This document shows, piece by piece, positions 751 to 64,000 of a stretch of 64,000 bases of DNA. Origin of the DNA: Minisyncoccota bacterium (GTDB lineage: Bacteria; Patescibacteriota; Minisyncoccia; Phycocordibacterales; DSPV01); NCBI GenBank assembly GCA_041662545.1, contig JBAZSH010000002.1:2239-66238 (forward strand). Direction: 5' to 3'. The notes beneath the pieces are model-generated. The model was not told the origin of the DNA, searched no databases, and saw only the letters and a list, made by a program, of their open reading frames with translations. The first letter of the stretch is position 1; every line of letters begins with the position of its first letter. Made by a program: the position numbers and the translations under genes.

Positions 751-4052
<3,302 letters not shown>

Positions 4053-6409: not shown

Positions 6410-7806
6410 AAATTGATTTAGAAAAATTGACGATTAAAAAAGCCCATGACGCTCTTTTGAAAAAAGAATTTTCGGCGCGGGATTTGACGGAGGCGTATTT
6501 GGCGGAAATTGATAAAAAAAATTCAGGACTGAACGCCTATTTGGAAGTTTTTGCCGATGCTTTAGAGCAAGCCGGCGCGGCGGATGAGAAGATAAAAAAA
6601 GGCGAGGTGGGTGTGCTAACCGGCATTCCGCTTGCCATCAAAGACAACATTTTGATAAAAGGTCGCCGCGCCGGCGCTGCTTCCAAAATTTTGGAGGGTT
6701 ATGTGGCGCCCTATGACGCAACGGTGATTAAGAAGCTCAAGGAAGCCGGCGCGGTTTTTTTGGGCCGCGTGAATATGGATGAATTTGCTATGGGTGGTTC
6801 CACTGAAAATTCCGCTTATGGTGTGACAAAAAATCCCCACGATGAGACACGCGTTTCGGGCGGCTCCTCCGGCGGTTCCGCCGCCTCCGTCGCCGCCAAT
6901 TTAGCGTTGGCAGCACTCGGTTCTGATACTGGTGGTTCTGTTCGTCAACCTGCCGCCTTTTGTGGCGTTGTCGGTTTGAAACCAACTTATGGTGCCGTTT
7001 CTCGTTCCGGTTTGATGGCAATGGGTTCGTCTTTAGATCAAATTGGACCTTTGGCAAAAACGGTGGAAGATGCGGAAATAATTTTTAATATCATCCGTGG
7101 ACAAGATCCAATGGACAGCACCACAATTTCTGAAAAAACTTATTCGCGCTTACCTTTACTGAAAAAATTTGTCATTGGCGTGCCTCGCGATTTTTTAGGT
7201 GAAGGTGTTGATAAAGAAGTTTTGGAAAATTTTGAAGTCGGATTGAAAAAACTAGAAAAAGCTGGCGTTGAAATTCGCGATATTGAATTACCAAATTTAA
7301 AATATTCTCTTCCCGCTTATTATATTATTATGCCAGCCGAAGTTTCTTCTAATCTGGCGCGTTTTGATGGCGTTAAGTTCGGGGCGAAAATTGCCGGCGC
7401 CAATCTTCTGGAAGATTATCTTAAAACCCGCGGCCAATTGTTTGGCAAAGAGGCGCGCCGCCGAATTATTCTCGGTACCTATGTCTTGTCTGCTGGTTAC
7501 TACGATGCTTATTACAACAAAGCTATTGCGGTACGAAAAATGATTGCCGACGACCTAAAAAAAGTTTTTGATTCTGGTATTCACGCTATTGCTACGCCCA
7601 TTACACCGACGCTCGCTTTCAAAATCGGCGAAAAAATAAACGACCCGCTTCAGATGTATCTTGCAGATATTTTTACCGTGACTGCCAATATTACTGGCAT
7701 ACCCGCCATTTCTATTCCATCTGGTTCCACCGGCTTCCAACTTCAAGCTCCTTGGGGTCGCGAAGATATCCTCTTTGAAATTGGTGAGAAGTTTGAGAAG
7801 ATATAA
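6406..7806 (+). CDS. gatA: Asp/Glu-tRNA amidotransferase subunit A (amidase signature)
   Basis: amidase signature GGSSGGSAASVA, catalytic Ser-cisSer-Lys context; overlaps gatC stop. Confidence 0.9.
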   Translation: MKIDLEKLTIKKAHDALLKKEFSARDLTEAYLAEIDKKNSGLNAYLEVFADALEQAGAADEKIKKGEVGVLTGIPLAIKDNILIKGRRAGAASKILEGYVAPYDATVIKKLKEAGAVFLGRVNMDEFAMGGSTENSAYGVTKNPHDETRVSGGSSGGSAASVAANLALAALGSDTGGSVRQPAAFCGVVGLKPTYGAVSRSGLMAMGSSLDQIGPLAKTVEDAEIIFNIIRGQDPMDSTTISEKTYSRLPLLKKFVIGVPRDFLGEGVDKEVLENFEVGLKKLEKAGVEIRDIELPNLKYSLPAYYIIMPAEVSSNLARFDGVKFGAKIAGANLLEDYLKTRGQLFGKEARRRIILGTYVLSAGYYDAYYNKAIAVRKMIADDLKKVFDSGIHAIATPITPTLAFKIGEKINDPLQMYLADIFTVTANITGIPAISIPSGSTGFQLQAPWGREDILFEIGEKFEKI

Positions 7807-12401: not shown

Positions 12402-14955
<2,554 letters not shown>

Positions 14956-22238: not shown

Positions 22239-22306
22239 TATCGGGGGGGGGTAATATTTTAAATTTATCAATACACTTATAATTTCCTATAGTGTATAAT
22301 AAGTGT

Positions 22307-22885
22307 ATGGGAATTTTGGAAAAACAAGCCAAAAAAAGATTAAAGAGGGAAACCTTAAAGAAAATCGTCTTGGGAACAGTGGCTGCGGCTGGCGTTTTGA
22401 GTGTTACTTTAGTGGCACCGAACGCTTTACAGATTTTGAAAATGTTTGGAGTAATGCCGTACAAAAGGAGAAAGGAATTAATTAAAAGAGTGTATGACAA
22501 GTTGATAAATCAAGGCTATTTGGTTAGAAAAGATGGTTTTTTAGAAATAACCGAAAAAGGTAGCTTAACATTAGAATTATTAAGTGAGGGAAAAGCTAAA
22601 TTAAAGAAACCAAGAAAGTGGGACAAAAAGTGGCGCATTTTGATTTTTGATATTGATGAAAAAAGGCGACCCAAAAGAGATAAGCTGAGAAGATCGTTAA
22701 TCTCTGTTGGTTTCATGAGATTACAAGATAGCGTTTGGATATATCCTTATGATTGTGAAGATTTTGTCGCATTGCTGAAAAAAGATTTTAAGTTGGGAAA
22801 AGAACTGCTTTATTTGATAGTTGAAGAAATTGAGGGAGATTCTTTTTTGCGTCAGTGGTTTGGTTTACCCGAAAGAGAAAATTAA
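22307..22885 (+). CDS. winged-helix + Cas2/VapD-like fold protein (stand-alone)
   Basis: central wHTH (KELIKRVYDKLINQGYLVRKDGFLEITEKG); C-terminal WRILIFDIDEKRRPKRDKLRRSLISVGFMRLQDSVWIYP matches the Cas2 beta1/KRRxK/G-x-R-hQ-SV core pattern; start moved to the second ATG because the track start overlaps a TGTATAAT box. Confidence 0.4.
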   Translation: MGILEKQAKKRLKRETLKKIVLGTVAAAGVLSVTLVAPNALQILKMFGVMPYKRRKELIKRVYDKLINQGYLVRKDGFLEITEKGSLTLELLSEGKAKLKKPRKWDKKWRILIFDIDEKRRPKRDKLRRSLISVGFMRLQDSVWIYPYDCEDFVALLKKDFKLGKELLYLIVEEIEGDSFLRQWFGLPEREN

Positions 22886-23029
22886 TTTAATTATCGATCG
22901 ATCTTGCTAATTTTGCTACGCAATTCACTTATAATACATTTTACCCCATACACTTATAATATCCTATAGGAAAAATTAAGTGTAAGGCAAATAATTTCGT
23001 TAAAAATTTGTTATAAAAAATAAAAATAA

Positions 23030-54324: not shown

Positions 54325-55077
54325 TTATTGAGTGATTAAGATAATAAAGCCGAGAATAATGAGGGCGACAGCACCCCAAATTTTGATGCCGGTGCGTTTA
54401 GTTTTTTTCCATTCTTCCACTTTGCCGTGTAATGCTTTATTACTTGCCAAGGCCAAGATTACCAGCAAAGGTGCGATGAAAATCAAATTATATATTATCA
54501 GATAACCCAGTCCTGACCAAAATGTTTCCTGATCATGAAGCAGGCCGAGCACTAAAAAATACGGGCCGCCGGTGCAAGGGAATTCATACATTGCCACAAG
54601 TAATCCTAAAACAAAAGCGGTGGGCACTGATGCTTTGGCCATAAGTGCCGCTATTTTTGGTTTAGCGCTGGTGGGAATTGTTAATTTGATAGGGAAGTTG
54701 GGGAAAATCTCGCCGGCGATATTTATTAAACCAAAGACAATTAAGATCAAGGCGCCGATTTTTGCCATTATGTGTGGTGCTCCAAAAGCCGTTAAGGTTT
54801 GAAGAATACCTAGACCGATAGAAATGTAGGCGATAAACACACCGAAAATATAAGTACCGCCAATAGCAAGAACTTTTTTCCTGCTGAAGCCCAAACTTAA
54901 CAAAAAACCAAGGGTGATTAACAAAACGGAAAAAGCGCAGGGATTAATGCTATCAATTGCCGCCGCGCCAATAATTACCCAAATCAAATGGTCCATAGTG
55001 AGGGAAACTATAACATAAATTAAAATAAATTGAGAATTGGTGAGTGGTGTGTTAACATTCGAAATATGAAAAGTCAA
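54325..55077 (-). CDS. ccdA: cytochrome c biogenesis/thiol-disulfide transporter CcdA (DsbD core)
   Basis: 6 TM, conserved Cys in INPCAFSVLL and PCTGGP. Confidence 0.75.
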   Translation of the reverse strand: MTFHISNVNTPLTNSQFILIYVIVSLTMDHLIWVIIGAAAIDSINPCAFSVLLITLGFLLSLGFSRKKVLAIGGTYIFGVFIAYISIGLGILQTLTAFGAPHIMAKIGALILIVFGLINIAGEIFPNFPIKLTIPTSAKPKIAALMAKASVPTAFVLGLLVAMYEFPCTGGPYFLVLGLLHDQETFWSGLGYLIIYNLIFIAPLLVILALASNKALHGKVEEWKKTKRTGIKIWGAVALIILGFIILITQ

Positions 55078-56262
55078 GAAGTTAAAAAAGTTTACCCTGA
55101 GCGAAGTCGAAGGGTTTTTGTCGGCCTCTCTGGTGGAGTTGATTCTTCTGTTTCTGCGGCTTTGCTAAAAAAAGCCGGTTATGAAGTGACCGGAGTTTTT
55201 ATCAAGGGTTGGCATCCGGATTGGGGTCCTTGTGGTTGGCAGGAAGATCGTTTGGACGCCATGCGGGTTTGTGCTCATTTGGGCATTCCTTTTTGTGATT
55301 TAGATTTGTCAAAGGAATACAAAAAAGAGGTGGTGGATTATATGATTGATGAATACAAAGTGGGCAGAACGCCAAACCCTGATGTGATGTGCAATCAGAA
55401 AATTAAATTCGGCGCGTTTTTTGATTGGGCATCGGCACAAGGCGCGAATTTTGTGGCGACAGGACACTATGCCCAAATTAAAAATTTGAAATTAAAAATT
55501 TCTAAAGATAAGAACAAAGACCAAACTTACTTTCTGTGGACACTTACGCAGAGAGAACTTTCACGGACGCTTTTTCCCGTTGGTGGTATGATCAAATCGG
55601 AAGTGCGTAAGTTGGCGAAAAAATTCGGTTTGCCAACGGCCGAGAAAAAAGATAGTCAAGGTTTGTGCTTCGTTGGCAAAGTAGATTTACCGGATTTTCT
55701 TTCACACTTTTTGAAGCCGAAACGCGGCGATGTTTTACTTGCCCCGAACGGAGTTGAGGGGGGTAAGGGTGGCACAAAAATCGGCTGGCACAAGGGCGTT
55801 TTCTTTCTGACCATAGGCCAACGGCACGGTTTTACTATTACCAAAAAGACCCCAAATGATTTGCCTTATTACATTGTTGCCAAAGATGTTAGAAAAAACA
55901 CTATCACGGTTTCTCATAAGCTCTTTCCCCAGAGGTCAGACCTTTCTCTGACTTCAAGGTCTGACCTCGCAAACTCTGTTGTCTTGCGCGATGTTAATTG
56001 GATTTCACCCATTTTTGATTTTAGAGGTCAGACCTCTAACTCTAGGAGAGGTCTGACCTCTCCTAACCTTTTTGCCAGATTTCGCTATCGCCAACCGCTT
56101 CAAGAAATTCATCTTAAGAATAAAAGGTTGAACCTTAAATCTGTAGAAAGGTTCAACCTTGAAATCCGATTTCAAAAACCTCAACCCGCCATCGCTCCCG
56201 GTCAGTCGCTAGTAATTTATTCTAAGACAGAAGAATGCCTCGGCGGCGGGATTATTGTATAA
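55066..56262 (+). CDS. mnmA: tRNA 2-thiouridylase MnmA carrying three in-frame 37-nt hairpin insertions in C-terminal domain
   Basis: PP-loop SGGVDSS, catalytic Cys pairs; ~50 aa longer than typical due to insertions at 55933-55968, 56024-56060, 56124-56160. Confidence 0.85.
   Translation: MKSQEVKKVYPERSRRVFVGLSGGVDSSVSAALLKKAGYEVTGVFIKGWHPDWGPCGWQEDRLDAMRVCAHLGIPFCDLDLSKEYKKEVVDYMIDEYKVGRTPNPDVMCNQKIKFGAFFDWASAQGANFVATGHYAQIKNLKLKISKDKNKDQTYFLWTLTQRELSRTLFPVGGMIKSEVRKLAKKFGLPTAEKKDSQGLCFVGKVDLPDFLSHFLKPKRGDVLLAPNGVEGGKGGTKIGWHKGVFFLTIGQRHGFTITKKTPNDLPYYIVAKDVRKNTITVSHKLFPQRSDLSLTSRSDLANSVVLRDVNWISPIFDFRGQTSNSRRGLTSPNLFARFRYRQPLQEIHLKNKRLNLKSVERFNLEIRFQKPQPAIAPGQSLVIYSKTEECLGGGIIV
55933..55968. 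repeat. 37-nt palindromic hairpin element (type B: gaggtcagacct-loop-aggtctgacctc)
   Basis: inverted 12-mers with 13-nt loop, in frame within mnmA. Confidence 0.85.
56024..56060. repeat. 37-nt palindromic hairpin element (type B, second copy)
   Basis: gaggtcagacctctaactctaggagaggtctgacctc. Confidence 0.85.
56124..56160. repeat. 37-nt palindromic hairpin element (type A) in mnmA
   Basis: aaggttgaaccttaaatctgtagaaaggttcaacctt. Confidence 0.9.
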
Positions 56263-60702: not shown

Positions 60703-61683
60703 ATGAATCTTGGATTTTGGGGAAAACTTCAGCCCAAGGCTGACCCGCCTAGGGCGGGAAAAAAACCGATAATTTGCCAGGCGCCGATGGCTGATGTCAC
60801 CGACGCAGCTTTTCGGCAAATGATTGCGAAATACGGAAAACCTGATGTGATGTGGACTGAATTTATTTCAGCCGATGGCTTATGTTCGGTGGGAAAAAAG
60901 AAATTGCTTCACCTTTTGAAATTTAGCGAAAAAGAGCGGCCGATTGTTGCTCAGCTTTTTGGCGCCAAACCAGAAACGATGCGTTGCGCCGCCGCCCTCG
61001 TAGTAAAGCTTGGTTTTGATGGCATAGATATCAATATGGGCTGTCCCGATCGGGCGGTGGAAAAACAAGGCGGCGGCGCGGCTTTAATAAAGAATCCAAA
61101 ATTGGCCCGTGAAATTATTCGCGCCGCGAAAGCAGGCGTGGAATCCTCTGATCGGCGGATACCAGTGTCAGTAAAAACTCGCATCGGTTACAACAAGAAC
61201 GAGTTGGCTTCGTGGCTTCCAGAACTTCTCGCCGAAAATCTAGCGGCGATAATTATTCACACCCGAACGCGTAAGGAACTTTCTAATGTGCCGGCTCGCT
61301 GGGAACACATTCGCGAAGCAGTGGCGATTCGCAATCAATTAAAAAGCAAAACTTTAATTATCGGTAATGGTGATGTTGCTGATTTGACGGACGCTTATGA
61401 AAAAGTAAAAATGAGCGGTGCTGATGGGATAATGATTGGGCGAGCGTTTTTTGGTAAACCTTGGTTGCTCTCTGATTTTTCAAGTTTGAATCTTTCCATC
61501 TTGTTAGAACACACTAAACTTTTTAATAAGCTTTTGGGTAAACACAAAAATTTCGCGGTAATGAAAAAACATTTTAAGGCCTATATTAACGGTTTTTCCG
61601 GCGCTAAAGAATTGCGCATTAAACTAATGGCCACCAAAAATGTCGCGGAAGTGGAGGAAATATTAAAAACATGGAACCACTAG
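60703..61683 (+). CDS. dus: tRNA-dihydrouridine synthase
   Basis: APMADVTDAAFR, INMGCP FMN/TIM-barrel motifs. Confidence 0.85.
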   Translation: MNLGFWGKLQPKADPPRAGKKPIICQAPMADVTDAAFRQMIAKYGKPDVMWTEFISADGLCSVGKKKLLHLLKFSEKERPIVAQLFGAKPETMRCAAALVVKLGFDGIDINMGCPDRAVEKQGGGAALIKNPKLAREIIRAAKAGVESSDRRIPVSVKTRIGYNKNELASWLPELLAENLAAIIIHTRTRKELSNVPARWEHIREAVAIRNQLKSKTLIIGNGDVADLTDAYEKVKMSGADGIMIGRAFFGKPWLLSDFSSLNLSILLEHTKLFNKLLGKHKNFAVMKKHFKAYINGFSGAKELRIKLMATKNVAEVEEILKTWNH

Positions 61684-62890: not shown

Positions 62891-63268
62891 ATGTTTCGCA
62901 AAATGCCAAGAAAACGCCGACGATTTAATAAGCGCCAGGCGATGGTTTGTGGTTCTGCTCTCGGGTTGATACTTGAAGACGAGGTTGAGACCTATTTGAA
63001 AGAATTGCTCGCTGGTGGTTTTATAGCAAGTTATGTGCGACATAGTCGTCATTCACTTGAAGATTGTTCCGGAAGGGATTTTACGGTGGGGAAACAAGTT
63101 AGGGGAATACTGGTTTATGTTTCTTTTGGAGTTACAATTTCAGCTGAAAGATGCCTTCGGAGTAGGGACTTACATTGGCCCGTTCCCCAGTTTTGGTTTC
63201 CAATTTGGACAGATAAGACGTTAATTGTCAAGACTATTTTGGATCTATTCAAGCCGTTATCGGTTTGA
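62891..63268 (+). CDS. hypothetical small basic protein
   Basis: strong SD AAAGGAGGTG 8 nt upstream, terminator hairpin 63272-63297 + T7 directly after stop. Confidence 0.45.
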   Translation: MFRKMPRKRRRFNKRQAMVCGSALGLILEDEVETYLKELLAGGFIASYVRHSRHSLEDCSGRDFTVGKQVRGILVYVSFGVTISAERCLRSRDLHWPVPQFWFPIWTDKTLIVKTILDLFKPLSV

Positions 63269-64000
63269 ACTTGGACCCTGACCTTGTGTCAGGGTCCATA
63301 TTTTTTTGAAATTATTTGGTAAAAACCAGTGAATGTTTTTATCTTTTTTAAACCAAGTCATTTGTCTTTTGGCATAGCGCCAGATTTCAGTGAAGAGTTT
63401 TTCAATCATTTCTTCTTTGGATCCGTCAGTCGGCGGATTATTTTTGAGATATTTCGCAAGATAACGGTATTCCAAACCAAGTTCGTTCATTCGTTTCCAT
63501 GATAAACCCTGCTGATGTAATTTTTCTGCTTCAGCGATCATTCCTTGTTTCAAGCGCGCAAGTAGGCGAGTGCGAATTTTTTTCTTCAATTTTTCCGGCG
63601 GTAAAGTTAAGCCAATTTTTATGACTTTAAAAGGTTGAACCTTGGATCTGAAAAAAGGTTCAACCTTTATTTCTTTTTCTTTTGATAAGGCGACCTCTAT
63701 TGCCCGAATTAAACGGCGGGGATTGTGGTGGTCAATTTTTTCTGCCCGCGCCGGGTCCAGTTTTTTTAACATTTCAAAAAGTTCGCTGGCCGATTTTTTT
63801 GCCAATTGGGCGCGAAGTTTTGGATTGGGTGGCGCGGGCGCCAATTCAATTTCGCCAAGCAGGGCAGAAATATAAAAACCAGTGCCACCGCAAATTATGG
63901 GAGTGTGGCCGCGTGAAAAAATCGCGGCGATTTTTTCACGCCCTAATCTGACAAAATCAGCAGCAGAAAATTGTTTTTTTGGATTAGCAACATCCAAGAG
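63257..64000 (-). CDS. miaA: tRNA dimethylallyltransferase (N-terminus beyond window end), carrying a type-A 37-nt hairpin insertion
   Basis: P-loop region PIICGGTGFY near window end; conserved IPT family blocks. Confidence 0.8.
   Translation of the reverse strand, partial: LLDVANPKKQFSAADFVRLGREKIAAIFSRGHTPIICGGTGFYISALLGEIELAPAPPNPKLRAQLAKKSASELFEMLKKLDPARAEKIDHHNPRRLIRAIEVALSKEKEIKVEPFFRSKVQPFKVIKIGLTLPPEKLKKKIRTRLLARLKQGMIAEAEKLHQQGLSWKRMNELGLEYRYLAKYLKNNPPTDGSKEEMIEKLFTEIWRYAKRQMTWFKKDKNIHWFLPNNFKKIWTLTQGQGPSSNR
63272..63304 (+). terminator. rho-independent terminator (overlaps 3' coding end of convergent miaA)
   Basis: ggaccctgaccttgtgtcagggtcc + TATTTTTTT. Confidence 0.7.
63631..63667. 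repeat. 37-nt palindromic hairpin element (type A) in miaA
   Basis: aaggttgaaccttggatctgaaaaaaggttcaacctt, identical to ligA copy. Confidence 0.9.

Follow-up and report, generated by a model that had tools for sequence, protein, structure and literature searches.

This analysis concerns a 64-kb window, that is, the whole stretch of 64,000 nucleotides studied (contig JBAZSH010000002.1), from a metagenome-assembled genome (MAG) of Candidatus Paceibacterota, and the short palindromic elements embedded in its housekeeping genes. Five perfect hairpins were found in the window, one in ligA, three in mnmA and one in miaA, and the reading frame is open through all five of them in LigA, MnmA and MiaA, so that the elements are probably translated. 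The genes and elements in question, including a degenerate single arm in dus, are the following:

12922..14955, plus strand: ligA, NAD-dependent DNA ligase, frame intact through the element
13242..13278: A-type hairpin in ligA, AAGGTTGAACCTT / GGATCTGAAAA / AAGGTTCAACCTT (arm / loop / arm), 17-bp stem, 12-residue peptide
55066..56262, plus strand: mnmA, tRNA 2-thiouridine synthase, frame intact through three elements
55932..55968: B-type hairpin, MnmA site 1, GAGGTCAGACCTT / TCTCTGACTTC / AAGGTCTGACCTC, peptide RSDLSLTSRSDL
56023..56061: B-type hairpin, MnmA site 2, stem of 15 bp and loop of 9 nt, in another reading frame, peptide RGQTSNSRRGLTS
56124..56160: A-type hairpin, MnmA site 3, AAGGTTGAACCTT / AAATCTGTAGA / AAGGTTCAACCTT, peptide RLNLKSVERFNL
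60703..61683, plus strand: dus, tRNA dihydrouridine synthase, holding the solo arm
61482..61494: degenerate solo arm in dus, AAGTTTGAATCTT
63257..64000, minus strand: miaA, cut by the window end, frame intact through the element
63631..63667: A-type hairpin in miaA (minus-strand gene), read from the other strand, 13-residue peptide

All five hairpins have a common geometry, in which a 13-nt arm is followed by an 11-nt loop and by the exact reverse complement of the arm, giving 37 nt in total and a spacing of exactly 24 nt between the arm starts. Each arm is an odd palindrome on its own, AAGGTT-G-AACCTT in the A-type and GAGGTC-A-GACCTC in the B-type, and as a consequence the two arms of one element are also near-direct repeats of each other. 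The stem runs on into the flanks, reaching 17 bp in ligA (13238-13282), 15 bp at 56023-56061 and 14 bp in miaA. Pattern searches detected three A-type copies (AAGGTTGAACCTT-N11-AAGGTTCAACCTT) and two B-type copies in the window, with no match for either type in 100 dinucleotide shuffles, and the ligA and miaA copies are identical at 37 of 37 positions. RNA folding of the hairpins is predicted at -16.7 to -29.4 kcal/mol (z = -4.7 to -9.0). Every one of the 10 exact arms present in the 64 kb is paired, while single arms with one mismatch number 6, compared with a chance level of 5.0. The MnmA protein is 398 aa long in the window vs ~350 aa in typical homologues and has 100% identity with one annotated from a Candidatus Paceibacterota MAG, and the peptides derived from this one DNA family differ among the genes (RLNL...RFNL in LigA, KVEP...KVQP in MiaA, RGQTS..RGLTS at MnmA site 2). 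The original prediction, made from the sequence of the window, had placed five elements in frame at these positions and had noted the identity of the ligA and miaA copies, all of which holds; the stems of 12 bp with loops of 12-13 nt that it described are in fact 13 bp with 11-nt loops, with stems of up to 17 bp.

The same repeat is found far beyond the window. One genome per species was scanned for the pattern AGGTYNRACCT-N13-AGGTYNRACCT in 185,579 species, yielding at least 117 loci, and the matches listed, sorted by whether the genome is labelled as belonging to the CPR (candidate phyla radiation), are distributed as follows:

CPR-labelled: 90 loci, comprising 77 perfect inverted, 8 near-perfect inverted and 5 direct or near-direct only
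Non-CPR: 16 loci, comprising 2 perfect inverted, 1 near-perfect and 13 direct or near-direct only
Unlabelled: 11 loci, comprising 8 perfect inverted, 0 near-perfect and 3 direct or near-direct only

The hairpin structure therefore occurs almost only in CPR-labelled MAGs among the matches listed, under labels that include Paceibacterota, Nomura-, Taylor-, Kaiser-, Lipton-, Lloyd-, Yanofsky-, Zambryski-, Campbell-, Nealson- and Doudna-, Moranbacteria, Minisyncoccia and 'Saccharibacteria'. Regarding the last label, the contigs L002 / L102 (CAZVQR01) are titled 'uncultured Candidatus Saccharibacteria', and their MnmA, MiaA and Dus are close to those of the Paceibacterota window, the MnmA being common also to 'Parcubacteria group bacterium Gr01-1014_73'; some taxon labels of third-party annotation (TPA) records thus look unreliable. 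Only direct tandem repeats are present in 12 of the 16 non-CPR loci. These and the viral matches are 24-nt direct tandem repeats in repetitive proteins (for example PQKQVRPPTQ, GNNSGSTS, KKVEPKTT), unrelated to the hairpin family; such loci are L008, L032, L054, L063, L107 (Spirochaetaceae Ncb351_bin45); L049 (Lactiplantibacillus daoliensis); and viral L126-L134. The viral contigs of IMG/VR gave 9 matches, all of them such 24-nt direct tandem protein repeats and none a hairpin, and accordingly nothing hints at phages as carriers of the element.

The 95 non-redundant perfect copies among the matches listed have the arm [A/G]AGGT-YNR-ACCT[T/C] in common, in which the YNR centre is dictated by the search pattern, the unit being otherwise written [A/G]AGGT-NNN-ACCT[T/C]. 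Across these copies the centre triplets vary (CGG/CCG, CAG/CTG, TCG/CGA, TGA/TCA, TAA/TTA) and the arms are always complementary. The A and B elements, initially taken for two sequence types, are consequently centre-triplet variants of a single family, alongside CGG/CCG, TCG/CGA and TAA/TTA variants. The asymmetric loop also follows a consensus over the 95 copies, GAATCTGCAAA, GGGAATTCAAA or GGATCGGAAGA. Most copies in H43-bin105_1 carry the loop GGGAATTCAAA or AAGAATTCAAA, in either orientation, and those of one Taylorbacteria MAG carry GGATC(C/G)G(A/G)AGA or a close variant; within both genomes the loop is genome-specific while the centre triplets vary, which is the pattern expected from amplification within a genome. 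The metagenome scan located the A-type in ligA, in miaA, at two MnmA sites, in dus, in an RpiB-like gene and in one additional gene. Both orientations and three frames are represented among the copies, which are spread over unrelated genes as well as intergenic DNA, and their arms are mostly intact (111 perfect copies, 25 bearing a single mismatch and 10 bearing two to four, giving a perfect:imperfect ratio of 111:35). The family is thus multi-copy and present in many genes and genomes, in line with the further copies anticipated by the original prediction, and is not confined to the three loci of the window.

Rfam searches of the mnmA region, at gathering thresholds and then at permissive ones, returned no family match, only sub-threshold microRNA-like noise, and no published description of this repeat family was found in the literature, where the arm sequences themselves were also queried. 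It is a new and mostly intragenic family, probably a structural variant within an already known class of selfish palindromes.

The history of the elements can be followed at orthologous sites in related genomes, where element and flanking DNA diverge to the following extent:

MnmA site 3: 0-4/37 nt differences in the element, flanks 72-81% identical
miaA: 0/37 nt differences in the element, flanks 77% identical
ligA: 2-6/37 nt differences in the element, flanks 79-84% identical
dus: 0-9/37 nt differences in the element, flanks 76-90% identical

Divergence of the element is never above that of the flanking coding DNA, and it is much slower at two of the sites (MnmA site 3 and miaA). Relatives of the window's ligA (82-85% protein identity) hold the element at the same site, with one or two mismatches in one arm in L122, L123 and L125, with an inverted loop as well in L125, and with about half of the element deleted in L124; ~12 additional nt are kept on each side in the window and in L122. 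At this site the element-free LigA of CPR bacteria has a 15-aa loop, which equals the element-bearing loop of L123 in length, and other lineages have RSDL-type or RFDL-type copies. The miaA of P0243/L136 contains the identical 37-mer at the same place. Different palindromes occupy this site in other lineages, as in L146 (1881-1919), where AGACACGCCGTGTCCACA-tcc-TGTGGACACGGCGTGTCT presents the same 13-11-13 layout built from another arm, GACAC-GCC-GTGTC. The dus gene of relatives has the full 37-nt element between flanks equal to those of the window, and the window's dus has only a mutated single arm and is shorter by exactly 24 nt, corresponding to one arm and the loop (8 codons). The dus of L002 shows no trace of the element, and at the corresponding site of a contig titled Saccharibacteria there is an RFDL...RSNL copy.

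At MnmA site 3 the A-type is found in six contigs representing five lineages, with a compensatory G:C to A:T change in L002, and an unrelated palindrome with a 17-bp stem stands there instead in L004. Site 2 is occupied by the B-type in the window; in L002, L004 and L140 it is occupied by a nested palindrome, GGGAGT-CGG-ACTCCC. At site 1 of L140, a decayed B arm with paired changes within it is followed by part of an inverted B loop and then by an A-type element replacing the second B arm. A second copy at site 1 in L001, L138 and L140 matches the site-3 copy of the same genome exactly or within 1 nt. The window's own copies are reproduced in another sample (L139, L145).

Taken together, copies pass between loci, as follows from the identical 37-mers of ligA and miaA, the extra copies at MnmA site 1, the dus and RpiB-like copies and the genome-specific loops. 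Decay proceeds through arm mismatch, partial deletion, loop inversion and a clean loss of 24 nt that leaves a solo arm. The recent mobility that the original prediction had read from the identical copies is not borne out, as the ligA, miaA and mnmA site-3 copies lie at the same sites in relatives; with flanks only 72-84% identical there, the identical copies are old and unusually conserved.

Several other palindromes were observed in the same loops and genes of relatives. Nested palindromes in MnmA/MiaA loops are located at 5152-5193 of L002, at 7005-7048 and 7117-7154 of L004, at 3886-3921 of L001 and at ~8285-8345 of L141, with examples such as GGGAGT-CGG-ACTCCC / AAGT / GGGAGT-CCG-ACTCCC with compensatory changes, or arms abutting each other, AAGGCTTAGCCTT next to AAGGCTAAGCCTT, with 12-nt tandem repeats alongside. 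A hairpin with a 12-bp stem, ATACACTAACTT-N14-AAGTTAGTGTAT, related to the ATACACTTATAAT-containing inverted repeats around the window's PaaX_M gene, is present in miaA of L002 (12031-12068) and L004 (13698-13735), and the same hairpin directly follows ligA in L123 (10977-11014).

With regard to their placement, 77 of 107 copies (72%) lie in a stop-free open reading frame (ORF) of at least 150 aa, compared with 82% of random 37-mers from the same loci, which makes the family mainly intragenic and only slightly depleted from genes; ~28% of the copies are outside long ORFs. Intergenic copies were found within terminator-like inverted repeats in L020, L061, L070, L079, L097, L109 and L117. The 77 genic copies use the three frames in the proportion 51:18:8, the preferred frame being xxA-AGG-TYN-RAC-CTT (R-x-D/N-L), the sole one that is stop-proof for any centre triplet. 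A test for stop avoidance gave 3.73 of six frames open, vs 3.04 in shuffled palindromes and 3.72 in random genomic 37-mers; as the number equals that of random genomic 37-mers, it is not distinctive and indicates no engineered avoidance of stops.

At the protein level, the AlphaFold model of MnmA (mean predicted local distance difference test, pLDDT, of 76.5, from a shallow alignment) has segments with pLDDT<50 at residues 287-301, 321-331 and 354-362, against element-encoded residues 289-301, 320-332 and 353-365, and these three segments are modelled between beta strands of the C-terminal domain. The suggested mapping of the peptides to loops is consequently matched by the model at all three MnmA sites. 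Site 3 appears as a gap of +8 aa relative to the Streptococcus pneumoniae MnmA structure (PDB 2hma), the LigA copy as a gap of +14 aa directly before the KxDG strand relative to Bacillus LigA (1b04), and the gain in comparison with element-free CPR homologues is ~zero to +8 aa, the length changes at the sites being irregular indels together with the clean 24-nt step. The 13-15 residues said to be added are therefore only approximate, fitting the 14 aa of LigA vs Bacillus but neither the 8 aa of MnmA site 3 nor the values relative to CPR homologues. Nor are the elements clean additions, since element-free loops are often of similar length; relatives share the element at the same sites. The elements persist where extra sequence is tolerated, namely in variable protein loops and in or beside terminator-like hairpins. 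Elsewhere in MnmA, at residues ~225-237 (55737-55775), an extra LLAPNGVEGG is present in some CPR homologues and in neither the others nor the solved MnmA structures; the DNA encoding it forms a decayed quasi-palindrome, CCCCGAAC...GTTGAGGGG, and residues 229-234 have pLDDT<50.

Perfect hairpins are also in excess in these genomes in general. The window has 15 of them with stems of at least 10 bp, vs 1.55 in dinucleotide shuffles (about tenfold), and the fetched CPR loci hold 185 non-family hairpins with stems of at least 11 bp in 840 kb, where a rough calculation expects ~3 (about sixtyfold); many of these have 3-4-nt loops. Within the family, 25 of the 96 copies have a palindrome that continues for 3 bp or more into the unique flanks, vs ~1.5 by chance, solo arms are often located at the tip of longer unique palindromes, and arrays of arms occur with periods of 12, 21 and 24 nt. 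A perfect palindrome at 63911-63941, GCGTGAAAAAATCG-CGG-CGATTTTTTCACGC, lies in the conserved N-terminal coding region of miaA and is not an insertion, since L002 and L004 have a segment of equal length there; the palindrome also occurs in L136, L140, L146 and L147, where the lineages differ by a compensatory T:A to C:G change.

We consider it probable, at about 0.62, that the hairpins represent a short non-autonomous selfish palindromic repeat of the same kind as repetitive extragenic palindromic sequences (REPs) and Rickettsia palindromic elements (RPEs), tolerated in loops of proteins and terminators. The unit would be the 13-nt mini-palindrome, and the full element two inverted units around an asymmetric 11-nt loop. 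As the arms are almost direct repeats 24 nt, or 8 codons, apart, gain, loss and replacement could occur without a frame break, and slippage or template switching between the arms may add or remove sequence with the frame kept. The excess of perfect stems and the paired changes could come from hairpin-templated (quasi-palindrome) correction, rather than from selection for a host function. The palindromes continuing into unique flanks, the solo arms at palindrome tips, the arm arrays and the general hairpin excess likewise point to such correction and to copy-choice. For the spread to new loci two mechanisms can be envisaged: copy-choice or gene conversion with arm-like microhomology as the primer, which is slightly favoured, or a hairpin-recognising transposase that acts in trans from another part of the genome.

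A number of observations weigh against such a reading. No clean pair of an empty and a filled site was caught among the loci, so that insertion itself would have to be deduced, and the flanks of the 95 loop-oriented copies have neither a target-site duplication nor a one-sided target motif; the only flank preference is symmetric (C/A at -1, with G in 2/95, and G at +1, with C in 1/95), the flanks tending toward complementarity with no direct repeat. Pfam scans of 50 of the 58 window ORFs detected no transposase, HUH/Y1 enzyme or integrase, a further three ORFs (LigA, MnmA and MiaA) having been identified by homology. The loop is often about as long in element-free homologues, and the 'insertion' may therefore be a replacement. 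The elements of MnmA site 3 and miaA differ by 0-4/37 nt while their flanks are 19-28% diverged, a conservation that exceeds what would be expected for simple junk DNA, and the loop variant is particular to each site, contrary to what plain homogenisation across the genome would produce. Unrelated nested palindromes at the same protein sites mean that either permissive sites are very few or some targeting is needed. Finally, most loci beyond the window were fetched because they matched the pattern, and statistics on copy number and perfection are biased accordingly.

The closest known systems are RPEs and intragenic REPs, which the present family resembles in its behaviour while falling outside what defines them. 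Classical RPEs of the RPE-1 type measure ~100-150 bp, and the element described here, with 37 nt, is set apart from them by that description. RPEs are likewise selfish palindromes of coding and non-coding DNA, situated in frame in housekeeping proteins, tRNA-modification enzymes included (PMC1166351; PMC3733652), and they have no known dedicated transposase, as is the case here. Nevertheless, RPEs are known only from Rickettsia, whereas the present family is almost only in CPR-labelled genomes; of 728 RPEs in R. felis 85 are in ORFs (PMC1166351), compared with ~72% of the copies here; and the identity between RPE repeats is reported to fade with time (discussion of PMC6649704), whereas the majority of the present copies are perfect. 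The original prediction of an analogy to RPEs by a different family is thus upheld, the elements being palindromic, multi-copy and in frame, with a length of 37 nt and another host.

RPE-4 and RPE-6 of R. conorii are CGTC-type REPs according to PMC3733652, which also places REPs inside genes for DNA ligase, tRNA synthetases and a tRNA pseudouridine synthase; intragenic REPs and RPEs are both documented (PMC3733652, PMC1166351). REPs and their paired form, REPINs, have palindromic units of 20-40 nt, often arranged as inverted pairs, comparable with the 37-nt dimer, and their sub-families also differ by complementary stem changes. On the other hand, the unit here has only 13 nt (a 5-bp stem and a 3-nt centre), below typical REPs; the unpaired GTAG/CGTC tag of REPs (PMC3733652) is absent from the flank profile of the 95 loop-oriented copies; and REPs are mostly extragenic, downstream of ORFs, while 72% of the copies here are in ORFs of at least 150 aa. 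The accessible part of that REP survey (PMC3733652) mentions no CPR organism. No gene for a REP-associated tyrosine transposase (RAYT, a Y1/HUH enzyme) is present among 50 window ORFs.

Miniature inverted-repeat transposable elements (MITEs), such as Correia/NEMIS and Nezha, are alike in being small and non-autonomous, with inverted ends, and in being co-transcribed or occasionally in frame. MITEs are ~100-400 bp long, derive from insertion sequences (IS) and make target-site duplications, and neither such a size, nor an IS origin, nor a target-site duplication was seen here. The coding palindromes of Nematomorpha mitochondria are also perfect inverted repeats in translated genes, with few imperfect ones and a dynamic gain and loss (PMC6649704), for which repeat conversion or template switching has been proposed (PMC6649704). 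They differ in being up to 284 bp long and unique, and in lying over conserved protein, compared with a multi-copy element in variable low-pLDDT loops; the miaA 63911-63941 palindrome, in conserved coding sequence with no added length, is their closer analogue. Bypassing elements (byps) of Magnusiomyces mitochondria are short palindromes scattered in protein-coding genes as well (cited in PMC6649704), but they break the reading frame and the ribosome skips them, whereas the frame here is open in the five window copies and in 77/107 overall.

The main rival is a nucleic-acid signal kept by the host, which could be a site for a dimeric protein, a cruciform or single-stranded DNA hairpin acting in replication, recombination or DNA uptake, or an mRNA hairpin affecting stability or translation. 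We hold it to be unlikely. The two-fold symmetric AAGGT-N3-ACCTT arm would suit a dimeric protein, the outer pentamers of the arms, like the loop consensus, are kept across distant CPR classes, compensatory changes preserve the pairing, and perfect copies far outnumber imperfect ones; a selected signal would also fit MnmA site 3 and miaA, with 0-4 nt differences in the 37-mer, flanks of 72-81% and an own loop variant for each site. However, the ligA and dus elements diverge about as fast as their flanks, and the mismatches, inverted loop and partial deletion in ligA orthologues, as well as the mutated solo arm in dus, have left the genes intact. A host signal also accords poorly with copies in both orientations, three frames, unrelated genes and intergenic DNA, and with the lack of any Rfam family. 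The mismatches on the sense strand comprise 6 G.U vs 9 A.C, and with no excess of G.U they give no support for pairing as RNA. Moreover, the window arms are all paired, with no single sites, unlike uptake sequences or operators. Among specific candidates, parS-like or operator sites were rejected for the lack of single sites and for the variable centre. DNA uptake sequences and uptake signal sequences (DUS/USS) are single copies and very frequent, at ~1 per kb, and were rejected since the element is too rare and always paired (10 exact arms in 64 kb). CRISPR remnants were rejected as no arrays are present, and introns or bypass elements as the reading frames are preserved.

Different palindromes recur at the same protein sites, two sites are conserved and the geometry is fixed, features that await an explanation. 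A quite unlikely alternative would be a hairpin-directed process common to the whole CPR lineage, which writes and maintains 13-11-13 nested coding palindromes, or else a functional signal for a dimeric CPR protein. Such a process could originate from a structure-specific enzyme, or from a peculiarity of replication or repair (missing hairpin nucleases or exonucleases), and it would remodel the same surface loops of essential proteins again and again. Different palindromes at identical sites, the second arm family of L146, the slow evolution at two sites and the hairpin excess would all be compatible with this process, doubtful as we consider it.

It is improbable that the hairpins arose in place, by template switching that perfected chance quasi-palindromes, with the family likeness due to mutational or codon convergence and with no movement at all. 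The 185 unique non-family hairpins in 840 kb against ~3 expected would fit this origin, as would the miaA 63911-63941 palindrome with its unchanged length and compensatory change over conserved coding sequence, the often equal loop length with and without the element, and the palindromes running into unique flanks. Still, it leaves unexplained the identical 37-mers, asymmetric loop included, in unrelated genes (ligA and miaA, or two MnmA sites in L001), the loop consensus over ~95 copies from many genomes and the genome-specific loop variants across different genes; loops at independent loci are already more alike than composition predicts.

Selection at the protein level, for a reusable module of 12-13 residues (for example an RSDL...RSDL beta hairpin) beneficial to host proteins, is very improbable. 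One frame is indeed strongly preferred (51/77 copies), the peptides are at exposed loops and the same peptide is kept in orthologues, but the preferred frame is simply the stop-proof one, three frames and both strands give unrelated peptides, ~28% of the copies are outside long ORFs and the segments have low predicted confidence (pLDDT). An artefact of metagenomic assembly or amplification is effectively refuted already: all carriers are MAGs or metagenome contigs, and fold-back chimeras are an artefact known to occur, but projects and assemblers independent of one another (GW2011, RIFCSP, NC_groundwater, Hainich, SMAG, JGI, Logan) recovered the elements at the same gene positions, with evolutionary variation and preserved frames.

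As for the rest of the window, it has a 23S rRNA gene (765-4037), a 5S rRNA gene, an RNase P RNA, one tRNA and ordinary housekeeping genes. The 23S rRNA is split by a group I intron at 3358-3641 (Rfam RF00028, 55 bits), and a 134-aa ORF lies on the opposite strand at 3500-3904. A gene with a PaaX_M (Cas2-like) domain at 22292-22885 is bracketed by inverted repeats at 22271-22308 and 22946-22987 with ATACACTTATAAT, and four PaaX_M genes are dispersed among otherwise syntenic genes in L124.

The finding is real and larger than first thought. If the elements are selfish repeats of the proposed kind, they would rank with the shortest known palindromic repeats that reside mainly in genes, across a major and poorly understood branch of bacteria, and they would explain many odd length differences and low-confidence loops of CPR proteins, which matters for annotation and structure prediction. 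The family is easily searched in metagenomic contigs and may help to flag CPR DNA, while its copies constitute a natural experiment on the tolerance of essential enzymes to random loop insertions. The excess of perfect hairpins, the compensatory changes and the in-frame steps of 24 nt would, in that case, point to an unusual handling of hairpins in the replication or repair of CPR bacteria.

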